A stretch of DNA of 64,000 nucleotides from assembly GCA_965198045.1 (NCBI GenBank), contig CBDAOL010000009.1:254445-318444 (forward strand), read 5' to 3'. Below the pieces are notes generated by a model. The model saw only the letters and a list, made by a program, of their open reading frames with translations, did not search any database and was not told where the DNA came from. Source of the DNA: Dehalococcoidia bacterium (GTDB lineage: Bacteria; Chloroflexota; Dehalococcoidia; UBA2979). Each line of letters begins with the position of its first letter. Position 1 is the stretch's first letter. Positions 1 to 46,646 of the stretch are shown here, one piece after another. Made by a program: the position numbers and the translations under genes.

Positions 1-2214
1 ACGGGTCACGCCGTCTACGGCGCCGACGTGCGCCTCAACGGCATGCTCACCGGCCGCGTGCTGCGCAGCCCGCACGCACACGCCATCATCACGCGCCTGG
101 ACGCCTCGAAGGCGCTCGCCCTCCCGGGCGTCCATGCCGTCGTCACGTTCGAGGACTTCCCGGAGCCCGGCGAGCCGGTGATGCAGACGATGCGCGGCCC
201 GCAGCCGGCCGCCTGGGACGTTGAGCGCGTCATGGCGCGGCGCAAGGTCCTCTTCCGCGGCCACCCGGTCGCCGCCATCGCCGCCAGCGACCCGCACGTC
301 GCCGAGGACGCCCTCGAACTGATCGAGGTCGAGTACGAGGTGCTGCCGGCCGTGGTCAGCCTCGACGACGCGCTCGCACCGAACGCGCCGATCCTGCACG
401 ACGACGGCATGGCCGAACTCGTCAATGGCCTGTTCGAGCCCGTGGACGGCAAGCCCACGAACATCGCGCGCAGCTTCGAGCTGACGCTTGGCGACATCGA
501 TGCCGGGTTCGAAGAGGCCGAGGTCATCCTCGAGCGCGAGTACGGGACCTCGATGGCCCACCAGGGCTACATCGAGACGCACAACGGCACGGCGGTATGG
601 ACGGACGACGCCCGCGTCACGATCTGGACGAGCACGCAGGGCGCATTCGGCGTGCGTGGCATCGTCGCGCGGCTCCTCGACATGCCGCTGGGCGACATCC
701 GTGTCATCCCGGCGGAGATCGGTGGCGGTTTCGGCGCGAAGAACGTCGTCTACCTCGAGCCGATCGCCGTGCTGCTGGCGAAGAAGAGCGGACGGCCCGT
801 GCAGGTAACGATGAACCGCACCGAGGTCCTGGAGGCGACCGGACCGACATCGGGCACGCGCTCTCGGGTCCGGCTCGGCGCCAAGCGCGACGGCACCTTC
901 GTTGCGTGCGACATCCTGCTCGAGTACGAGGCTGGCGGGTACCCGGGATCGCCTGTGGCTGGCGGCGCACGCTGCGCCGTCGGGCCCTACACGGTGCCCA
1001 ACCAACGCGTGATCGGTCACGACGTGGTCGTCAACAAGCCGAAGGTCGCGGCGTACCGCGCTCCCGGCGCGCCCGCGTCCGAATTCGCGGTCGAGTCACT
1101 GATCGATGAGCTGGCGGAACGCCTCGAGATGGACCCGATGGAGCTGCGTCAGATGAACATGGCCCTCGAGGGCGGTTCGCGCACAGATGGCGCGGTCCAT
1201 GGTTCGCTCGGCGTACAGCAGGTGATGGAGGCCGTGGTCGCCCACCCGCACTACCGCGCAGAACTCTCCGGCGACAACGTCGGGCGCGGCGTGGCGATGG
1301 GATTCTGGCAGAACGGCGCCGGCGAGTCCAGCGCCTATGCCAACGTCCACGCGGACGGCCACGTCACGCTGGTCACCGGCTCGGTCGACATCGGCGGCCA
1401 GCGTGCCGCGCTCGCGATGCAATTCGCCGAGGCGATGGGCATCCCCTACGACCACATCCAGTCGCTCGTGGGCGACACCGACACGATCGGCTTCACCACC
1501 AACACCGGCGGCAGCCGCACCACGTTCGCAACGGGGTGGGCCGTATACCAGGCCGCCCTCGACGTGCGCGCGCAGCTCGAGGAACGCATCGCGCGCATCT
1601 GGAACGTCGAGGCGCACGAGGTGACGTACGACCCGGACGGCGCAGTGCTGCGTGGCCCGGCTGGCAACGAGATGACGTTCACGGACGCTGCGCGACGCCT
1701 GCCCGCCACCGGCGGGAACATCCAGGGCCGCGCCGACATCGTGGCCACGAACGTCGGCAAGGTCGGCGCTTGCTTCGGCGCGCACATCGCCGACGTCGAG
1801 GTCGACCTGGAGACCGGCAAGGTGACGGTGCTCCGCTATACGGCCATCCAGGACGTCGGCCGCGCCATTCACCCCGCCTACGTCGAGGGGCAGATCGAGG
1901 GCGGCGCTGTGCAGGGCATCGGCATGGCCCTGAACGAGGAGTACGTCTACGACGACGAAGGCCGGATGCTCAACTCGTCCTTCCTCGACTACCGCATGCC
2001 GGTCGCAAACGACCTGCCGATGATGGAGACGGTGCTCGTCGAGGTGCCGAATCCGGGCCACCCCTACGGCGTGCGCGGGGTCGGCGAGGTGCCGATCGTG
2101 CCGCCGCTCGGCGCGATCGCGAACGCCATCTACGACGCCGTCGGGGTCCGCATCACGCAGCTGCCGGCCACGCCTCCCGTGCTCCTCGCGGAGCTCGAGG
2201 CGGCGAAGTTGTAG
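1..2214 (+). CDS. xanthine dehydrogenase/aldehyde oxidase family molybdopterin-binding large subunit (5-prime end cut by window edge)
   Basis: Frame is open from base 1. The listed ORF 28..2214 starts at an internal Met. a/b-hammerhead then MoCo-binding order; GGGFG and C-terminal GVGE motifs are typical of CoxL/XdhB-type subunits. Confidence 0.8.
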   Translation, partial: TGHAVYGADVRLNGMLTGRVLRSPHAHAIITRLDASKALALPGVHAVVTFEDFPEPGEPVMQTMRGPQPAAWDVERVMARRKVLFRGHPVAAIAASDPHVAEDALELIEVEYEVLPAVVSLDDALAPNAPILHDDGMAELVNGLFEPVDGKPTNIARSFELTLGDIDAGFEEAEVILEREYGTSMAHQGYIETHNGTAVWTDDARVTIWTSTQGAFGVRGIVARLLDMPLGDIRVIPAEIGGGFGAKNVVYLEPIAVLLAKKSGRPVQVTMNRTEVLEATGPTSGTRSRVRLGAKRDGTFVACDILLEYEAGGYPGSPVAGGARCAVGPYTVPNQRVIGHDVVVNKPKVAAYRAPGAPASEFAVESLIDELAERLEMDPMELRQMNMALEGGSRTDGAVHGSLGVQQVMEAVVAHPHYRAELSGDNVGRGVAMGFWQNGAGESSAYANVHADGHVTLVTGSVDIGGQRAALAMQFAEAMGIPYDHIQSLVGDTDTIGFTTNTGGSRTTFATGWAVYQAALDVRAQLEERIARIWNVEAHEVTYDPDGAVLRGPAGNEMTFTDAARRLPATGGNIQGRADIVATNVGKVGACFGAHIADVEVDLETGKVTVLRYTAIQDVGRAIHPAYVEGQIEGGAVQGIGMALNEEYVYDDEGRMLNSSFLDYRMPVANDLPMMETVLVEVPNPGHPYGVRGVGEVPIVPPLGAIANAIYDAVGVRITQLPATPPVLLAELEAAKL

Positions 2215-2224
2215 GCACACGACC

Positions 2225-2494
2225 GTGCCGGTCGTCCACGTGCCGGCCGCCCTGCGCTCGCTGACGGACGGTCAGGATCGCTATGAGGTCGAGGGCGCGA
2301 CGCTGGGGCAGGTCTTCGCCGCCGTGGCCGAGGAGTGCCCGGGCCTCGTCGAACAGATCCTGGTCGACGGTGACCTGCGGCCGGAGATCGCCGTCGCCAT
2401 CGATGGCTCGATCCTGGACGGCAGCGGCCTGATCCACCCCGTCGGTCCCGACGCAGAGATCTACCTCGTGCCGCCGCTGAGTGGCGGGTCCTAG
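2225..2494 (+). CDS. MoaD/ThiS-family ubiquitin-like sulfur-carrier protein
   Basis: 89 aa, beta-grasp size. C-terminus is ...VPPLSGGS (Gly-Gly plus one extra Ser). Sits 10 nt downstream of the Mo-enzyme gene. Confidence 0.55.
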   Translation: MPVVHVPAALRSLTDGQDRYEVEGATLGQVFAAVAEECPGLVEQILVDGDLRPEIAVAIDGSILDGSGLIHPVGPDAEIYLVPPLSGGS

Positions 2495-4302
2495 CGGTAG
2501 GCCTCCGCCTGGATCGTGTTCAGCTCCGCGTAGCGACCGTTGAGGGCCATCAGTTCCTCGTGCGAGCCGATCTCTATCATCCGCGAGCCGTCCATCACCA
2601 GGATCAGGTCGGCCATGCGCACCGTTGAGAAGCGGTGCGAGACCAGGACCGTGATGCGCCCGCTGGCCCGGCCCTCGTCGGAGCTGGCCGCCTCGGCGTA
2701 GCGCTCGAACAGCTCGTGCTCGGTCTCGGCGTCCAGCGCCGCGGTCGGCTCGTCGAGGACCAGTACCAGCGGCTCGTCGCGCATAAAGTCGCGGGCGAGC
2801 GCCAGCTTCTGCCACTGGCCGAACGACGGCTCGACGCCGCCGTGCCAGGTCGGACCGAGCTGGGTGTCGAGGCCGTTCGGCAGCCCGCCCACGACATCCT
2901 CGGCGCCGGCCCGACCCACACCGACCTCGACGGCAGGCCGATCCTCCTCGCGCGGCAGATCGCCCAGCCCCACGGTGCGCTGCGCAAGGTACTCGAAGCG
3001 GAAGAAGTCCTGGAACGCCCCGGCGGTGCGCTCTCGCCACTGATCGGGGTCCATGCGCGAGAGAGGTACCCCGTCGGCGGTGATGACGCCCTCGGTGGGC
3101 TCGTACATGCGGCAGAGCAGCTTCACCAGCGTCGACTTTCCCGCGCCGTTCTCACCAACCACGGCCACCACTGTCCCCGCCGGCAGCTCGAAGTCGAGGT
3201 CGCGCAGCACCCACGGCTCGGAGCCGGGGTATCGGAACGACACATCCTCGAAGCGGATGCCGGCGGCGATGCGGTCGGGCGTCGGCACCTTCGCCTCCGG
3301 TATCTGCGCCGCGGCGTAGTTCTCGAGCCAGGCGAGGCGACGCGAGGCGTCGAGCCAGATGCCCCGCAGGAACGATGCCTCCTGCACCGTCTGGCCCACG
3401 TACTGGGAGAGCCGGCTGCCCGCGGCGAGGACCAGCAGCACCTCGGCGGCGGGCGCGTTGATGCCGACGCCGACGAAGACGATCGCGGCGACGTACGCGG
3501 AGGCGAAGACGCCCCAGCTCAGCGACTGCAATGTCGCCGTCACCCAGCGGGCGTGCGCGATCGGGTCGTACCAGCGACGCCAGGTCTTCGCGCGCTCCTC
3601 GACGAGGCGCGGGCTGACGCGGGCGACACGCACCTCTTTGCCGGTCGGCGCGCTCGTGCCGACGACGAAGAGGTGGCGCGCGAGGCGGAACTGGTCGCTG
3701 TATCGCTCCTGCACGTCACGCTCGACGCCGGCGCGCGAGGTCGACACCCAGATCGGCGGGATCGCGAACAGCGCGAGCAGCACCAGGGCCGGGTGCACCG
3801 ACATCAACAGTGCGAGCGTGAGCACCAGTCGCAGCGCGGCGCCGACCGTCGCGAACAGGGAGCTGTACATGTGGTTGAGCGCGAACACCTGGTCGCGCAG
3901 GACCGCGAGGCGGTCCAGGTAGTCCGGCCGCTCGTGGTGCTCGATGCTGGCGACCGAGGCCTGCAGGTGCGCCACATGCGATTCGATCACGACGGTCGCT
4001 CGGTCGGCGAACCGCCGGTTGACGCGCTCGCTCATCGTCTGCAGCACCCAGCCGCCGGTCGCGAGGCCCGCGAGGAAGAGCGCCGACACCACCAGCCGCG
4101 TCCGGTCGCCGGCAATGGCGCCCTCAGCGAAGAACTTCAGCCCGAGCGCGAACAGCGCGTCCGGGATGGCCGCTGCGACCGTCGTGGCGAACGCAATGAT
4201 GAGCAGCCGCGGCTCGGCACGGTACCCGAGTTTGATCGAGCGCCACATAGACTCGATCCAGCCGGGGAGCTCGTCGAAGCGGTCATCCGGGCGGGATGAC
4301 AT
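2491..4302 (-). CDS. ABC exporter, fused permease/ATP-binding protein (subunit 1 of heterodimer pair)
   Basis: 6-TM N-terminal region followed by Walker A (GENGAGKST), ABC signature (VSGGQWQ) and Walker B (LVLDEPTAALD). Start chosen at the internal ATG at 4302, preceded by GAGGAGG. Confidence 0.8.
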   Translation of the reverse strand: MSSRPDDRFDELPGWIESMWRSIKLGYRAEPRLLIIAFATTVAAAIPDALFALGLKFFAEGAIAGDRTRLVVSALFLAGLATGGWVLQTMSERVNRRFADRATVVIESHVAHLQASVASIEHHERPDYLDRLAVLRDQVFALNHMYSSLFATVGAALRLVLTLALLMSVHPALVLLALFAIPPIWVSTSRAGVERDVQERYSDQFRLARHLFVVGTSAPTGKEVRVARVSPRLVEERAKTWRRWYDPIAHARWVTATLQSLSWGVFASAYVAAIVFVGVGINAPAAEVLLVLAAGSRLSQYVGQTVQEASFLRGIWLDASRRLAWLENYAAAQIPEAKVPTPDRIAAGIRFEDVSFRYPGSEPWVLRDLDFELPAGTVVAVVGENGAGKSTLVKLLCRMYEPTEGVITADGVPLSRMDPDQWRERTAGAFQDFFRFEYLAQRTVGLGDLPREEDRPAVEVGVGRAGAEDVVGGLPNGLDTQLGPTWHGGVEPSFGQWQKLALARDFMRDEPLVLVLDEPTAALDAETEHELFERYAEAASSDEGRASGRITVLVSHRFSTVRMADLILVMDGSRMIEIGSHEELMALNGRYAELNTIQAEAYR

Positions 4303-10746: not shown

Positions 10747-11013
10747 GTGACCGGCGACCGGTACGAGGCGAAGCTGTCCTTCGACGACGACCTCGCGGGC
10801 CAGCGCGCGGAGGCGGACGGCGGCAGCCACGTGCCCGGCACCAACTTCGCCGCTCGCCAGGCGTTCACCGGGACGCTCACCGGGCGTCGCATGACGCAGG
10901 GCGATCCCCCGTGGCACTTCCTTGAACTCGCCGACCTCACCGACAAACCCGAGGGCTTCGAGCACGACTCGGTGTGGTGCCACGAGGATGACGTGTATAT
11001 CGATGACGCCTGA
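10747..11013 (+). CDS. hypothetical acidic protein (88 aa)
   Basis: High GC3 consistent with coding. No recognisable family and weak RBS. Confidence 0.35.
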   Translation: MTGDRYEAKLSFDDDLAGQRAEADGGSHVPGTNFAARQAFTGTLTGRRMTQGDPPWHFLELADLTDKPEGFEHDSVWCHEDDVYIDDA

Positions 11014-24018: not shown

Positions 24019-25188
24019 TCACCGTTCGTAGACGACGCCCCCGGTGCGGTGGGCTGCGATGTAGTCGTGGCCGATCTCAACGCCAAGGCCCGGCCCCTCG
24101 GGCGGCTGCACGCAACCCTGATCGTCGATGGACTCGAGCTGCTCCTCGTAGTTGAGGAACACCGGCGGCCGCGACAGCTTCAGCCGAGGGTGCACCAGGC
24201 CCATCTCGTAGTAGTTCGTGTTGCGGATCGCGGCCATCAAGTGCCGGCGCGTCGGGCCGGGTGAGTGCAGTTCCGCGTCGAGGCCGAAGCCCTCAGCGGC
24301 GTGCGCCACCTTGAGGCCGCCCGTGATGCCGCCGTCGTAATCGGGGTCGACCCGCACGAAGTCGGTACCGTCCGCGACGATGAAATCGACGTGCATCTCC
24401 ACGCCTCGGATGTGCTCGGTCTGAAGCAGCGGCGTGCTGATCAGCTGTCGCAGCTTCCGGTGACCGAACGCCGAGACGCCGCCGTCGCGGTAGGGATCCT
24501 CGAGCCAGAGATAGCCGTACTCGTCGCATGCCTTGCCGACCTTGTAGGCGTCGGCGAACGTCATGAGCGTGCTCGCCGGGTCGAGCATCATGTCCATCTT
24601 CCCGCCGACCCGCTTCGCCACGGCCTCTAGGAGGTCGAGCCGCTTCTGGAGGGTCGCGTCGCGCCACCAGTGGATCTTGTACGCGGGGTAGCCCATCTCC
24701 AGGCACTGCTCGGCGAAGTCGGCATAGGCCTCGGGCGTGCTCAGGCCATCGGGCTCGTCGTCTCCCACCGTCGTGCTGGCGTAGCACGGGAGGTCGGTGC
24801 GGAACTCGCCGAGCAGCTGGTAGACCGGTGCGTCGAAGAACTTGCCGGCGATGTCCCAGAGCGCCATGTCGACCTGCGACATCCCCATCCGCGCCTGTTG
24901 CTTCAGCGACAGCTTGGCGTCGTTGTAGAAGCGTTCGCGTGCCAGCGCGCTGCGCCCGAGCAACGCATGCGCGACGTTGGCCACGCCCGCGAGTTCCGAG
25001 GCGTTCCCACCCACGTATTCGCCGGTGATGCCAAGGTCCGTCTCGACGGACAGCAGACGCCCGGTCCGCGTAAGCGTGCCACCCTTGCGATACATCGGCA
25101 TGCGTGTCTCGCGGTGCGGTTCGATGTCCTGGAGCTCGTAGCTGAACTCGGTGATCTCGATCTTCGTGACGATCGGGGGCTGATCCAT
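24019..25188 (-). CDS. enolase-superfamily enzyme (mandelate racemase / muconate lactonizing enzyme family)
   Basis: Capping domain plus TIM-barrel with acidic metal ligands (...MDMMLDPASTL..., ...LWLEDPY...). Confidence 0.8.
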   Translation of the reverse strand: MDQPPIVTKIEITEFSYELQDIEPHRETRMPMYRKGGTLTRTGRLLSVETDLGITGEYVGGNASELAGVANVAHALLGRSALARERFYNDAKLSLKQQARMGMSQVDMALWDIAGKFFDAPVYQLLGEFRTDLPCYASTTVGDDEPDGLSTPEAYADFAEQCLEMGYPAYKIHWWRDATLQKRLDLLEAVAKRVGGKMDMMLDPASTLMTFADAYKVGKACDEYGYLWLEDPYRDGGVSAFGHRKLRQLISTPLLQTEHIRGVEMHVDFIVADGTDFVRVDPDYDGGITGGLKVAHAAEGFGLDAELHSPGPTRRHLMAAIRNTNYYEMGLVHPRLKLSRPPVFLNYEEQLESIDDQGCVQPPEGPGLGVEIGHDYIAAHRTGGVVYER

Positions 25189-25244
25189 GGTTCGACTCCG
25201 TGCTGCGAGTGATCTGTGGCATCAGCGCACCCTAGCGGAGTCTG

Positions 25245-42322: not shown

Positions 42323-42427
42323 ATGGCGTCCAAAGACAAAGGCGGCAAAAACGTAAAGAAGGCTGCCGCCACAAGCCTCAAGGAGAAGCGCAAGGCGAAG
42401 AAGGCGAAGAAGGCGGCGCGCAGCTAA
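42323..42427 (+). CDS. small lysine-rich basic protein (34 aa: MASKDKGGKNVKKAAATSLKEKRKAKKAKKAARS)
   Basis: Not in the ORF track (too short). Strong GAGGAGG 5 nt upstream of the ATG. Atypically A-rich codons in a 70% GC genome. Confidence 0.4.
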   Translation: MASKDKGGKNVKKAAATSLKEKRKAKKAKKAARS

Positions 42428-42443: not shown

Positions 42444-43148
42444 CTACCGGCTCGCGTTCTCCTGCAGGACTCGCTCGTCGCTGAGCAGCACCAGGCCGAG
42501 GCAGCGTCCGGCCTCGCTCGGTTCGCGCGCGGTCAGGATGACCCGCTGGTAGCGGGTGTCGCGCAGGCCCTCGACGAGGTCGTGGAGGAACGTGTCCGGC
42601 TTCTCTGTCCCCGGCGCCGTGCGCATCACCTCGCCGATCTCGGTATCGGGATCGACGTCCGCCGGCATGCCGTCGACCCGTCCGAGGAGCACCCCTCGCT
42701 CGTCGACGACGAGGCAGAGGTCGAGCGGTGCATCGGTCATCTCAGGAGCCACGTCGCGGATCCGCCGGTCGGGTGGGACGGTGAGCACGTCCGTGCGCGC
42801 GACGTCGATCGCACGCCGGCGGCCGGCGGTCCGGCCCTCGGTCGGCAGCCCGTGGATCGCCCAGTCGGCCTTACCCGGGGCGTAGTCGTAGACGCTGGCG
42901 AATCCGAGGCTTTCGAGCCGCGCCGCGGCTCGTGGGCTGGCGTCTCACTCCAGGTCGTAGCAATAGACGATGATCGGCTGTGCGCGGTCGAGGTGCGCAG
43001 TGGTGTTGGCCGCAATCTCGGCCAGCGGGACGTTCACCGCGCCGAGTAGATGCTCCTCGGCGAACTCCTCGCGCGCGAGTGCCTCGAGGAGCTGCGCCCC
43101 ATCAGCGAGCATTCGCTGGACCTGGCCACGGTCGATCACCGCCGGCAT
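42444..43148 (-). CDS. rhodanese-domain plus CBS-domain ORF interrupted by one in-frame TGA (42945..42947) at or near the rhodanese catalytic loop
   Basis: Track ORFs 42945..43148 (rhodanese N-terminal part ...PIIVYCYDLE*) and 42444..42788 (CBS-like) are in the same frame. The 156 nt between them translate without stops to DASPRAAARLESLGFASVYDYAPGKADWAIHGLPTEG..., a typical rhodanese C-terminal half. Confidence 0.55.
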
Positions 43149-43175
43149 ACTTGCCCCCTCCGGGTCGCCTGGCTG

Positions 43176-44834
43176 CTAGACGCCGAACTCCTGCAGCCGC
43201 TCCTGGACGAAGTTGACGGCCATCGCACCCTCGTTCACGGCCGTGACCACGCGCTTCGTATTGCCGTGACGGACGTCACCGCTGACGTACACGCCGGGCA
43301 GGCTCGTCTCGAGCAGGTACGGCTCACGGTCGAGCGGCCAGGCGTGCTCCGCGCCCTGCAGGTCGTGACCCGCGAGCACGAACCCACGCTCATCCCGGGC
43401 GACGAGGTCGCCCAACCACTCGGTTCCCGGCTTCGCGCCGACGAAGATGAAGAGCGCGTTCGCCGCCGCTGTCTCCTCCTGTCCCGTGTCCGAGTGCGCG
43501 AGCGCCAGGGATTCGAGGTTCCTCGTCCCGTTGGCCTGCTTGATCTCGGTGTTCAGCATCACGTGGATGTTCTCGCCCGCATGGATCCGCTCAACGAGGT
43601 AGTTCGCCATGCTTTTGCCGAGCGAGTCGCCGCGCACGAGGATCGTCACGGAGTTGGCGAATTGCGCGAAGTAGAGTGCCGCCTGGCCCGCCGAGTTCGC
43701 GCCGCCGGCGATGAATACATCCTCGCCGCGGATCGACCGCCCCTCGATCATGGCTGCTCCGTAGTAGACGCCCGCGCCGGTGAGCTCGGCGACGCCGGGC
43801 TGCTCCAGCCGGCGGTACTCGACGCCCGTCGCGACCAGCACGGAGTAGCTCCGCAGCTCAGCGCCGTCGGCGAGCCTCACGCCGCGGTAGGAATCTGCTG
43901 CTGTCAATTCAACGACCTCGGACGTCGACAGGAACTCGGCGCCCAGCCGGGTCGCCTGCGTCACGGCCCGTCGTGCCAGGTCGCCGCCGGAGAGCCCGAC
44001 CGGAAATCCGAGGTAGTTCTCGATGCGGGCGCTCATGCCGGCCTGACCGCCGGGCGCTTCGCGCTCGATGATGAGGGTGCGGAGCCCAGCCGCCGCGCCG
44101 TAGACGCCGGCTGAGAGGCCCGCGGGCCCTCCACCGACGACGATCAGGTCGTAGAATGGCTGCTCCGCCTGCGTCCGCAGCCCCAGCTGCTCCGCGATGT
44201 CGCGGTTGTTCGGAGCCTCGAGGGCGACGCCGTCGGGGAACACGACCAGCGGCAGCGTCGGGTTCGGCTTCGCGACCCGCTCGAGGACGGCTGCGACGTC
44301 CTCGTCGCTATCGATGTCGAGCCAGCGGAACGGCACCTGGTTGCGCGCCAGGAAGTCCTTGACCGCATGCGAATCAGGCGACCAGCGGTCGCAGATGACG
44401 CGCACGCCTTCGAACGGTGGATGGAACGAGGCCTGCCAATCGTCGAGCAGGTCGTCGAGCGTGGGGTAGAGCCGCTCCTCCGGCGGGTCCCAGGGCTTCA
44501 TCAAGTAGTGGTCCAGGCGCACATCGTTGATCGCCCTGATGGCCACGTCGGTGTCGGCGTAGGCGGTCAGCAGCGTGCGCTTCGCCTCGGGGTAGACCTC
44601 GGCCACCCGGTCGAGGAACTCGATACCGGTCATGCCCGGCATGCGCTGGTCCGAGAGGAAGAGCGCGATCGCATCGCCACGGTTGCGCAGCTCCTCGGCC
44701 AGGCTCAGACCCTCGGCGCCGGAGTCAACGCCCATGATCCGGTAGTCGTCGCCGTAGTGGACGCGCAGGTCCTGCTGAACGGAGCTGAGCACGGACTGAT
44801 CGTCGTCGATGCTCAGCAGAACCGGTTTGTTCAT
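43176..44834 (-). CDS. response-regulator receiver (REC) domain fused to a thioredoxin-fold domain and a cysteine-free thioredoxin-reductase-like FAD/NAD(P) oxidoreductase
   Basis: N-terminal REC (conserved Asp in ...FLSDQRMPGMTG..., ...LLTAY...), a middle Trx-like segment with a single Cys (VICDRWSPDS), and a C-terminal TrxB-like two-Rossmann flavoprotein (DLIVVGGGPAGLSAG...) with no CxxC. Confidence 0.75.
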   Translation of the reverse strand: MNKPVLLSIDDDQSVLSSVQQDLRVHYGDDYRIMGVDSGAEGLSLAEELRNRGDAIALFLSDQRMPGMTGIEFLDRVAEVYPEAKRTLLTAYADTDVAIRAINDVRLDHYLMKPWDPPEERLYPTLDDLLDDWQASFHPPFEGVRVICDRWSPDSHAVKDFLARNQVPFRWLDIDSDEDVAAVLERVAKPNPTLPLVVFPDGVALEAPNNRDIAEQLGLRTQAEQPFYDLIVVGGGPAGLSAGVYGAAAGLRTLIIEREAPGGQAGMSARIENYLGFPVGLSGGDLARRAVTQATRLGAEFLSTSEVVELTAADSYRGVRLADGAELRSYSVLVATGVEYRRLEQPGVAELTGAGVYYGAAMIEGRSIRGEDVFIAGGANSAGQAALYFAQFANSVTILVRGDSLGKSMANYLVERIHAGENIHVMLNTEIKQANGTRNLESLALAHSDTGQEETAAANALFIFVGAKPGTEWLGDLVARDERGFVLAGHDLQGAEHAWPLDREPYLLETSLPGVYVSGDVRHGNTKRVVTAVNEGAMAVNFVQERLQEFGV

Positions 44835-46646
44835 CAGGCGCCCTCCTGCTGCGCTCCTAGCTCGGGTGGTCCCGCCAACGGTAGTCGCACCTGGAACCGG
44901 GTGTCGCCGGGCTCGGAGTGGACCTCGATGCTGCCGCCGGAGCGGTCCGTCACGATGCGCCTGACCACGTCGAGGCCCAGGCCAGTCCCCTGGCCCACCT
45001 CCTTCGTGGTGAAGAACGGGTCGAAGATGCGTGACTGGATCTCGACCGGGACGCCCGGCCCGTCGTCGCAGATCTCGACAAGCGCGTGATCGCCATCGAG
45101 GGCGGTACGCAAAGTGATCCCTCCCTCCGAGCCGACGGCGTCGATGGCGTTGTCGAGCAAGTTCGTCCAGACCTGGTTCAGCTCGCCAGCGAGGACTGAG
45201 AACTCCGGGATCTGCGGGTCGAAGTCGCGGACGATCTCGACGTTGTCGCCCAGCTTGTGCCGCAGGATGCGCAGCGTGCTCTCAAGCCCTTCGTGGATGT
45301 CGACCTCCTGCTGGGCCGCCTGGTCCATGTAGGAGTAGCTCTTCACCGCCCCGACGAGCTCCGACATGCTCGTCTTCGTCGTGAGCGTGCCGAGGAGTTC
45401 GCCGGCCGTGAGCGATTCGCTCAGCCAGGCCACTGCCGAGGGCACGGCTGACCCGGGCATGCCCGCCGTCACTTCCTCCAGGGTCGATCCCTCGATGCCC
45501 GCGGCGACGAGCGGAGGTGCGAGCTGCCACGCGTTGTCGACGTTGTGCGAGCCGAGCCAGCCCGCCAGCTCCTCCTCGCGGTCGGCCCGTTCGAGGGCGC
45601 TCAGCGTCGCCGAGGTTGCCGCGTCGACCTCGACCGCGCGCGCGAGCCCCGCCCACTGCTCCGTCGTCAGCCCCTGCTCGCCCAGCTGAACGGCCGCAAC
45701 CGAGAGACGTTCGAGGGTGTCGCGAAGCTGCGACGAGGCTCGTTGCGCGGCCGCGGCCGGGTTGTTGAGCTCGTGTGCGAGCCCAGCGGAGAGCTTACCC
45801 AGCGCGGCCAGTTTCTCGCTCTGACGCAACTCCTCCTCCGCCTGTTCGCGCTCGGTCGAGTCGAAGAATGCGACGACGCAGCCGGCCAGTTCGCCGTTTA
45901 CTCGCAACGGCGAGGCCCAGTACTCCGCCGGGAAGCTCGTGCCGTCAGACCGCCAGACGATCTCGTCGCGGACGTTCGTGTCCCGGTCCTCGCGGAACGC
46001 CTGGTAGATGCGGCAGTCCTCGACGGGGTAGTGCCCGCCGGTCGGACGCGCGTGGTGGATCAGCTCGTGCGCGTTGCGACCGAGCAGCTCCGCGTCGCTC
46101 TCGTAGCCAAGCAGTGCGACACAGGCGGGGTTCGCGAACGTGAAGTCGCCGTTCATATCGGTACCGTAGATGCCCTCGCCGGTGGCGTTCAGCAGCGCGC
46201 GCACCATCGCTTCCTGTTCGTGGATCTCCGCCTCGGCCGCCAGGCGTTCGCTGATGTCGACGAACGAGACGACGCTGCCGATCAGGTGATCCTCGTGGCG
46301 CACCGGGTACGACCAGTACTCGACGGGGCGTGCCATCCGCGCGCCAAACGATCTCGTCGCCGAGGTGCATGCCGCGTTCCTCGCGGTGCGCCTGGTAGAT
46401 CTGGCAGTCTTCGACTGGATAGGGCTCGCCGTCCTGCCGCGTGTGGTGGATCAACTGGTGCATGTTGTGTCCGAGCAGCTCCGCCTCGGTTTCATAGCCG
46501 AGCAGCTCGACGCAGGCCGGATTCGCGAACGTGCAATCACCGTCGAGGTCGACGCCGTAGACGCCCTGGCCGGTGGCGTTGAGGAGCGAGCTGACCAGCT
46601 GCTCGCTGTGTTCGAGTTCGTGGGCTGGCTGTTGGCTCGAAGTCAT
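44834..46646 (-). CDS. PAS-PAS sensor histidine kinase, frameshift near 46337
   Basis: Two homologous PAS domains (...NATGQGVYGVDLDGDCTFANPACVELLGYETEAELLG... and ...NATGEGIYGTDMNGDFTFANPACVALLGYESDAELLG...). HisKA (LSAGLAHELNNP) and HATPase (DDGPGVP...GTGLGL) follow. PAS1 is in track ORF 45945..46646, in a different frame from the rest. Confidence 0.75.

Follow-up and report, generated by a model that had tools for sequence, protein, structure and literature searches.

A 2026 review lists five forms of rhodanese selenoprotein, namely, UxxS, UxxG, CxU (NF041203), a further UxxG, and TsoB (UxxxxU, NF045694), where U denotes selenocysteine (Sec), and in four of these five Sec sits at the position of the catalytic cysteine (PMC13188914). 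Here we examined a gene from a 64,000-nucleotide stretch of a Dehalococcoidia bacterium genome (GCA_965198045.1, contig CBDAOL010000009.1), called the window throughout, in which a rhodanese domain and a pair of CBS domains are encoded in one frame around a single in-frame TGA. The initial annotation of this DNA had held a Sec codon and a nonsense pseudogene to be equally possible. The comparative evidence decides for Sec, and we give a probability of roughly 0.88 to the reading, argued from sequence comparison, that TGA 42947..42945 is a Sec codon and that the gene encodes an intact 234-residue rhodanese-CBS selenoprotein. We prefer this reading to a pseudogene because about 200 orthologues keep the TGA, coding is conserved on both sides of it, and the stem codons of a hairpin just downstream are frozen only in the TGA forms. 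The gene has what is looked for in a selenoprotein gene, in that Sec pairs with Cys in alignments, orthologues with UGA show coding conservation on both sides, and a stem-loop with a G that resembles a selenocysteine insertion sequence (SECIS) lies downstream.

The C-x4-U form with a CBS pair is not among the five forms of the review, which is silent on CBS domains (PMC13188914), and our literature search found no paper joining selenoprotein, rhodanese, and "CBS domain," although an unpublished or database-only record is possible. No model in the June 2026 release of NCBIfam reaches its cut-off for the window protein, which fits the truncation of the gene by every gene caller. We also tried to place the protein within the known forms. 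Forms 1, 2, and 4 (UxxS and UxxG) were rejected because the catalytic codon is TGC here and Sec lies at +5. Form 3 (NF041203, with LYCAU as its CxU motif) scored 22 bits against a cut-off of 115, and the motif here is C-x4-U. TsoB (NF045694) scored 28.7 bits against 805 over residues 28 to 112 only, and the window protein has a CBS pair rather than DsbD and a single Sec. The C-x4-U rhodanese-CBS proteins thus appear to be a widespread, uncatalogued selenoprotein family of soil bacteria.

The gene at 43148..42444 has one internal stop, TGA 42947..42945 at codon 68, and no other lesion. From this TGA to the next possible start, a GTG at 42788, 52 codons run without a further stop. The sequence and Pfam both confirmed what the initial annotation had read here, that the two halves share one frame with the TGA as their sole interruption, and it was right that the TGA lies within five residues of the catalytic cysteine (Cys63 and U68). 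The active-site loop of the window protein reads C-Y-D-L-E-U-D, with Sec five residues past the catalytic Cys. Placement of Sec at the catalytic-Cys position itself was ruled out, as that codon is TGC and the motif is CX4U. The best genome match, an orthologue from a Dehalococcoidia metagenome-assembled genome (MAG CBDDEC01), L012, is 94% identical to the window protein and has the same TGA. In every assembly examined, gene callers made two genes of it, a 67-residue rhodanese stub and a separate CBS protein. This split would be real if the TGA ended a rhodanese fragment and the CBS protein were made by reinitiation downstream, an explanation that agrees with every automatic annotation. We regard it as extremely unlikely, because the 52 codons from the TGA to the first possible start are among the best-conserved segments of the family and cover the helix capping the active-site loop of the rhodanese domain. 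Furthermore, a 67-residue fragment would be without half of the rhodanese domain, and the called downstream starts differ among orthologues.

Next, we compared the window protein with its relatives, of which a search of protein collections gave 528. Full-length relatives (40 to 47% identical) share the segment VYCxDxxC-DxSPRAAxRLExLGF, with Cys exactly in the TGA column. In an alignment of 113 sequences, 105 cover this column, 97 with Cys, 7 with Trp, and 1 with Arg; the catalytic Cys63 column holds Cys in all 105 homologues that cover it. The alignment that the initial annotation had proposed as a check has therefore placed Cys opposite the TGA in Cys-type homologues. The Trp residues occur in P0003, P0007, P0016, P0053, P0063, P0066, and P0096, and DNA was checked for P0003 alone (locus L092), where the underlying codon is TGA translated under another genetic code. 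In that protein, a later genuine TGA stop has also been read through; the organism uses code 11, and the gene caller had treated it as one with TGA=Trp. Among database proteins, the eight closest (64 to 74% identical) are all C-terminal fragments of 133 to 150 residues. DNA upstream of all eight runs in frame into the same TGA, and in those whose contig extends to the start of the gene, this DNA holds a 67-codon rhodanese open reading frame (ORF).

A scan of one genome per species yielded 80 loci, and the codon at the site is TGA in 69 of them and TGC or TGT in 11, so that relatives carrying TGA, which the initial annotation had asked about, are the majority. Counting all gene copies from genomes and protein look-ups, 80 of 91 have TGA. 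The TGA forms come from four phyla, Chloroflexota (Dehalococcoidia, Anaerolineae, Thermomicrobia, and Chloroflexia), Actinomycetota (Gaiellales, Thermoleophilia, Solirubrobacterales, Rubrobacter, and one Micromonospora), Methylomirabilota, and Acidobacteriota (Thermoanaerobaculia), and the Cys forms include two from Streptomyces. An exact-pattern scan of metagenomes, which required both the TGA and the hairpin, matched at least 120 contigs; among the matches listed, all 120 encode U-D-x-[SA]-P-R-A-A in frame, 117 of them being distinct. Past the TGA, residues D69, S71, P72, R73, A74, A75, L78, and others are invariant in the TGA forms. Their codons vary freely, with AGC, AGT, TCG, TCT, and TCA for Ser+3 and all four codons for Pro+4. 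Invariant residues with freely varying codons imply selection at the protein level through and beyond the TGA.

These data bear directly on whether the gene is dead. A TGC or TGT Cys codon is one substitution away from TGA, and 11 genome loci have a Cys codon at the site, so a nonsense mutation could in principle have produced the window sequence. The same mutation would, however, have had to recur or persist in about 200 orthologues from at least four phyla, with the frame open on both sides, with invariant residues under synonymous change after the TGA, and with stem codons frozen only where TGA is present. Additionally, the window gene has no second lesion and remains 94% identical to the L012 orthologue. 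A pseudogene is therefore highly improbable.

To describe the codons around the site, we used 74 distinct TGA forms that are free of gaps there and compared them with ten Cys forms. The catalytic position is Cys in 72 of the 74 TGA forms, with Sec at +5. Two loci, L050 (Chloroflexi MAG CAJXNA01) and L082 (Chloroflexota MAG JADFRV01), have TGA at both positions, VY-U-MDGL-U-DMSPRAA, and so contain U-x4-U; the same MAGs also hold C-x4-U copies (L013 for the former and L015 and L039 for the latter). In these paralogues, the first UGA lies 27 nucleotides (nt) before the hairpin and the two UGA codons are 15 nt apart, and one SECIS may serve both. A stop is likewise present at position -5 in a single contig of the L093-L212 metagenome set, a candidate further case.

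The initial annotation had noticed an 8-bp GC hairpin starting at +13 from the TGA, and we found it as described, behind a 12-nt spacer. Its 5' arm is CGAGCCGC (42932..42925), its loop is GGC (42924..42922), and its 3' arm is GCGGCTCG (42921..42914). Taken as one composite pattern, TGA and hairpin are found at a single place in the window, and 100 shuffles gave no match. Bacterial SECIS elements are stem-loops directly after the UGA with a small apical loop containing guanosine (PMC1088965). In the TGA forms, four stem codons are almost fixed: Ala+6 is GCC in 74 of 74, Ala+7 is GCG in 74 of 74, Arg+9 is CGG in 73 of 73, and Leu+10 is CTC in 73 of 74. Codon entropy at these four codons is 0 to 0.1 bit, against 1.2 to 1.9 bits for Ala, Arg, and Leu elsewhere in the alignment. 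The same four codons vary in the ten Cys forms (GCC, GCG, and GCT; CGG, CGC, and AGG; CTC and CTG). The loop codon at +8 varies among GCG, TGG, TGC, TCG, TGT, GTG, and TTG while both arms remain complementary. Pairing is complete across the seven core stem positions in 68 of 73 TGA forms versus 4 of 10 Cys forms. Stem codons frozen only in the TGA forms argue that the hairpin is under selection. The loop consists of CG plus one variable codon, has a G in every sequence, and begins CGU in 53 of 73. The concern raised initially, that the window's loop is not canonical, is eased at the level of the family.

Cys forms differ in how much of the hairpin they keep. L022 and L033, both with TGT and both among the four fully paired Cys forms, have an intact Sec-type hairpin despite the Cys codon, which suggests that they are recent Sec-to-Cys conversions. 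The stem codons have drifted in the other Cys forms compared (L042, L049, L076, and L085; TGC or TGT), those from Streptomyces included. Set against one another, the two groups form a small time series of SECIS decay. The conserved R-A-A-x-R-L-E codons are nearly palindromic, and a SECIS at this place would on that account be partly pre-adapted.

Several observations weigh against the Sec reading. Folded by itself, the 61-nt region has an energy typical of shuffled G+C-rich sequence (z = -0.37), and the hairpin is therefore meaningful only through comparison with relatives. Rfam gave no SECIS or other family match at the hairpin site. The arms are invariant, so that there is no compensatory covariation and the only changes are from A-U to G-U. 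The R-A-A-x-R-L-E peptide pre-encodes part of the stem, and the Cys forms keep four to seven of the seven pairs. Neither ARAGORN nor motif scans for SelA, SelB, and SelD found selA, selB, selD, or tRNA-Sec in the window or among related loci totaling 1.63 Mb. This negative is uninformative because sel genes need not be linked to a selenoprotein gene. For the source genome, the Sec machinery is documented at the level of the lineage only, a point that also favors a pseudogene. Those lineage records support the Sec reading: Dehalococcoidia include MAGs that, with 46 to 49 selenoprotein genes, rank with the richest known (PMC13326102), and the use of Sec by Rubrobacter has long been established (PMC1794560). 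ARAGORN also reported a "tRNA-???" at 25134..25211 (+) with the four-base anticodon cgtg; it has no Rfam tRNA match even at permissive thresholds and is probably a false positive.

The comparative data show translation and a hairpin requirement, not the residue inserted, and the homologues carry Cys in the TGA column. The residue inserted at the UGA could then be Cys, brought in by a tRNA(Sec)-like or SelB-dependent pathway, or else Trp or Cys through near-cognate readthrough; recoding of UGA to Cys with the help of SECIS-like elements has been put forward for some bacteria. We consider such decoding unlikely. For a bacterial UGA with a hairpin at such spacing, no outcome other than Sec is established, the TGA forms are found in lineages documented as Sec users, the Streptomyces Cys forms have decayed hairpins, and other genes of the window use TGA as an ordinary stop. 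Specifically, TGA ends 16 of the 45 long window ORFs that have a clear coding signal. Therefore, TGA is not reassigned genome-wide, and the recoding is specific to this site.

We also examined the rest of the window for recoding. The initial annotation had described many disrupted genes, a claim for which we found no support, since a scan for in-frame stops between coding-like flanks gave only ordinary gene junctions; the same scan found no other selenoprotein gene within the 64 kb. An in-frame TGA near 11011 (+ strand) was considered as a second recoding site and rejected as the junction of adjacent genes. Much of the window, apart from some gaps, is taken up by long ORFs whose codon-position G+C signal is clean. 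The stop codons of the 45 long ORFs are 28 TAG, 16 TGA, and 1 TAA. TGA is usually the predominant stop in genomes of 69% G+C, and the TAG-dominated stop usage of the window is unusual given that composition. A 34-codon lysine-rich ORF, MASKDKGGKNVKKAAATSLKEKRKAKKAKKAARS, at 42323..42427 (+) has a GAGGAGG ribosome-binding site and converges on the selenoprotein gene; a near-identical copy is present in L012. Coordinates of the gene, its parts, and its upstream neighbors are collected in Table 1.

Table 1. The predicted rhodanese-CBS selenoprotein gene, its elements, and the genes upstream of it, in window coordinates
Feature	Coordinates	Strand	Details
Predicted rhodanese-CBS selenoprotein gene, complete	42444..43148	minus	ATG 43148..43146; 234 sense codons; TAG 42446..42444
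Shine-Dalgarno-like GGAGGGGG	43154..43161	minus	5 nt before ATG 43148..43146; read from sequence
TGC codon, Cys63, canonical rhodanese catalytic position	42960..42962	minus	Strand end; first residue of active-site loop
In-frame TGA, inferred Sec codon U68	42945..42947	minus	Motif C-x4-U; aligns with Cys in Cys-type homologues
Predicted SECIS-like hairpin	42914..42932	minus	In coding region, 12 nt past UGA; encodes R73-A-A-A-R-L-(E)
Rhodanese homology domain, residues 9-97	42858..43124	minus	Pfam PF00581, 43.2 bits versus cut-off of 22.2
CBS pair (Bateman module), about residues 113-228	42465..42812	minus	Pfam PF00571, two stretches, 36.9 bits versus 24
Receiver + glutaredoxin-like + TrxR-like (thioredoxin reductase-like) flavoprotein	43176..44834	minus	Pfam Response_reg, Glutaredoxin, Pyr_redox_2; upstream, 27-nt gap
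PAS-domain histidine kinase	44834..46336	minus	Pfam PAS, HATPase_c; heads gene string

To view the active site in a structural setting, we made an AlphaFold model of P0002, a Cys-form homologue 46% identical to the window protein, from a 104-sequence alignment. The model has a predicted local distance difference test (pLDDT) score of 92.3 and places a strand at 59 to 62, a loop at 63 to 69, and a helix at 70 to 80. The loop runs from C63 to C68-D69, and the helix corresponds to the S-P-R-A-A-x-R-L-E segment. With a profile score above threshold, an alpha/beta fold, and Cys63 opening the active-site loop in the P0002 model, the first half is a rhodanese domain. The second half of the model matches the CBS pairs of CBSX1/2, MgtE, and AcuB in fold and is likewise a CBS pair. 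The active-site loop is acidic, with Asp65 and Asp69 invariant. GlpE/PspE-type loops are six-residue CX5 loops that are basic or neutral. A classical thiosulfate sulfurtransferase was rejected, as the GlpE score was 19.8 against 102, the PspE scores were 20.2 to 20.3 against 102 to 126, and the loop is acidic. Two metagenome proteins, P0037 and P0057 (394 and 396 amino acids), join a C-x4-C rhodanese and a CBS pair to a C-terminal peroxiredoxin domain with a PVCS motif, and these fusions may be a Rosetta-stone hint of a tie to thiol peroxidase chemistry.

By the established bacterial mechanism, and in line with the comparative evidence, SelB carrying Sec-tRNA(Sec) would bind the predicted 7- to 8-bp hairpin that lies 12 nt 3' of the UGA within the R73-A-A-x-R-L-E codons. 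SelB would then deliver Sec at the UGA in competition with release factor 2. In the resulting protein, Cys63 and Sec68 would be flanked by the invariant Asp65 and Asp69 and by the S-P-R-A-A helix cap, and they would form a redox-active or metal(loid)-binding thiol/selenol pair that cycles via a selenylsulfide. Such a pair is most likely, rather than classical thiosulfate sulfurtransferase activity. We base a redox or metal role on the peroxiredoxin fusions, the U-x4-U variants, and the DF-family and MerB-like neighbors described below. The CBS pair would act as a ligand-sensing or dimerizing module, through which the Cys/Sec pair may be regulated or assembled.

In the window, the selenoprotein gene stands last in a string of three and is probably cotranscribed with the receiver/TrxR-like gene before it. 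We considered whether the product of that gene could be a classical thioredoxin reductase partner and rejected this because it has no CxxC and falls below the TrxR cut-off (TIGR01292, 211.8 versus 343). The CATC of the E. coli TrxB sequence aligns with non-Cys residues in the flavoprotein at 43176..44834. The protein is an unusual response regulator, with an output made of a glutaredoxin-like domain in which SPDS replaces CxxC and a TrxR-like flavoprotein devoid of redox-active cysteines. The gene is syntenic in L012, L004/L005, L006, L010, and L011 and is 77 to 96% identical in the closest relatives, and the PAS kinase is syntenic in L012 and L004/L005 and has a remnant form in L001-L003. Neighbor genes in L012 are 93 to 98% identical to those of the window, which therefore stems from a close relative of the L012 MAG. 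Synteny with the kinase and regulator was rejected as a family-wide feature, being confined to the closest clade. We propose that the three-gene string (PAS kinase, receiver/glutaredoxin-like/TrxR-like flavoprotein, and selenoprotein) could work as a signal-controlled redox module; that the selenoprotein supplies the redox pair missing from the TrxR-like flavoprotein is speculative.

Other lineages have different neighbors. We surveyed the 111 loci whose upstream DNA was at least 1.7 kb long and found an ArsR/SmtB regulator in 34, a DF-family protein (NF049942) in 36, and a MerB-family lyase in 22. In 17 of the 111, ArsR, DF, and MerB-like genes are all present, in most cases directly upstream and on the same strand. 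The DF-family (seleno)protein neighbor reached 107.9 bits against a cut-off of 70 for NF049942, and the MerB-like neighbor matched PF03243 (E = 8e-34) while remaining below the MerB and SaoL equivalog cut-offs. In Gaiellales-type loci (among them L045 at 2033..2674, L024, L051, L061, and L036), the order is ArsR, DF, MerB-family lyase, and then the rhodanese-CBS selenoprotein, and the lyase has MCAIDALG and GCC motifs. This string looks like an actinobacterial mer operon to which two thiol/selenol proteins have been added. In L046, a Rubrobacter sp. MAG, the adjoining DF gene has a TGA at its second conserved Cys (GWGFG-U-RTY) about 200 to 400 nt upstream of the rhodanese Sec codon, making two adjacent selenoprotein genes; at every other locus examined, the DF protein has Cys at that position. 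Occasional neighbors of family members are a MerA-like flavoprotein, a MerR regulator, and a DsbD_2 membrane protein.

The ArsR/DF/MerB-like operons of Gaiellales and other Actinomycetota point to the handling of thiol-reactive metals or organometals by the wider family. More broadly, we sketch, tentatively and as something we think possible but doubtful, an uncatalogued family common in aerobic soil Actinomycetota and Chloroflexota that, together with the DF protein, the MerB-like lyase, and ArsR, would constitute a selenium-assisted system for organomercurials or thiol-reactive metal(loid)s. The Cys/Sec pair might take the metal from a partner or resolve its persulfide or selenylsulfide, and in the clade of the window the protein might have been rewired to a two-component system with a cysteine-less TrxR-like output. 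Some findings count against this functional part of the reading. None of the neighbors tested was present at 58 of the 111 loci, and the two-component neighborhood of the window is unlike the MerB-type neighborhood of other clades. The proposed chemistry is something that we only infer, with an acidic loop unlike those of characterized rhodaneses, and our confidence in the specific chemistry of the Cys/Sec pair is low to moderate.

If the Sec reading is correct, the family would be a sixth form of rhodanese selenoprotein, with Sec at +5 from a retained catalytic Cys and a fusion to a CBS pair. Because the gene is split in every assembly examined, the protein is effectively invisible in databases, and one profile together with one motif could let annotation pipelines recover hundreds of truncated genes. 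The family would extend selenoprotein biology into soil Actinomycetota and Chloroflexota, lineages that seem to receive little attention in selenoprotein papers. It also offers a natural experiment on Sec/Cys exchange, in which a SECIS would lie on the codons of a nearly palindromic peptide, recent converts keep the hairpin, and it is gone from older Cys forms. From the association with MerB-like, DF-family, and ArsR genes comes a testable functional hypothesis, selenium in metal or organometal detoxification. New selenoprotein families enter the literature at a regular rate; what makes this one stand out is how abundant it is in soil lineages, where its Sec lies, the apparently pre-adapted SECIS, and the operon link to DF and MerB-like genes.

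Among solved structures, the nearest by sequence is BH2092 of Bacillus halodurans (PDB 3NHV and 3O3W; E = 4e-15), a structural-genomics rhodanese. It also matches the rhodanese half of the P0002 model in fold (Foldseek E = 5e-10, root mean square deviation of 1.5 Å, 106 columns), and it shares the C-x4-C loop (YCWGPAC), with an AA-containing helix after it. However, BH2092 has Cys rather than Sec, is a single-domain protein without a CBS pair, and has a loop that is not acidic. The predicted hairpin can be compared with the SECIS of E. coli fdhF, in which the spacing from UGA to stem is 11 nt. Both are stem-loops within the ORF directly 3' of the UGA, at a spacing of about 11 to 12 nt, with a small loop that contains G and often GU. 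In contrast to the fdhF type, the hairpin here is short (7 to 8 bp), has arms that are invariant across phyla, and overlies the conserved R-A-A-x-R-L-E peptide.

The selenocysteine-assisted organometallic (SAO) system and mer operons also place selenoprotein genes beside a MerB-family lyase and a metal-type regulator (bioRxiv 10.1101/2022.07.06.499078), and the present family clusters in a similar way with ArsR, a DF (seleno)protein, a MerB-like protein, and occasionally a MerA-like flavoprotein. The SAO description differs in having neither a rhodanese nor a CBS protein (bioRxiv 10.1101/2022.07.06.499078). The MerB-like gene found here is CC rather than CU and scores below the MerB and SaoL cut-offs, and the window's own locus, with none of the ArsR, DF, and MerB-like genes, falls outside that system. 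With the five known forms of rhodanese selenoprotein, the family shares a rhodanese homology domain, a predicted Sec in or next to the active-site loop, and homologues that contain Cys. It is like TsoB in the five-residue spacing, with U-x4-U itself in two Chloroflexota paralogues (L050 and L082), and in the occurrence, near some family members, of a DsbD_2 membrane protein and of an ArsR regulator weakly similar to TsoR. Unlike TsoB and the other forms, the rhodanese-CBS proteins keep the catalytic Cys, carry their predicted Sec at +5, and have a CBS pair as the partner of the rhodanese domain.

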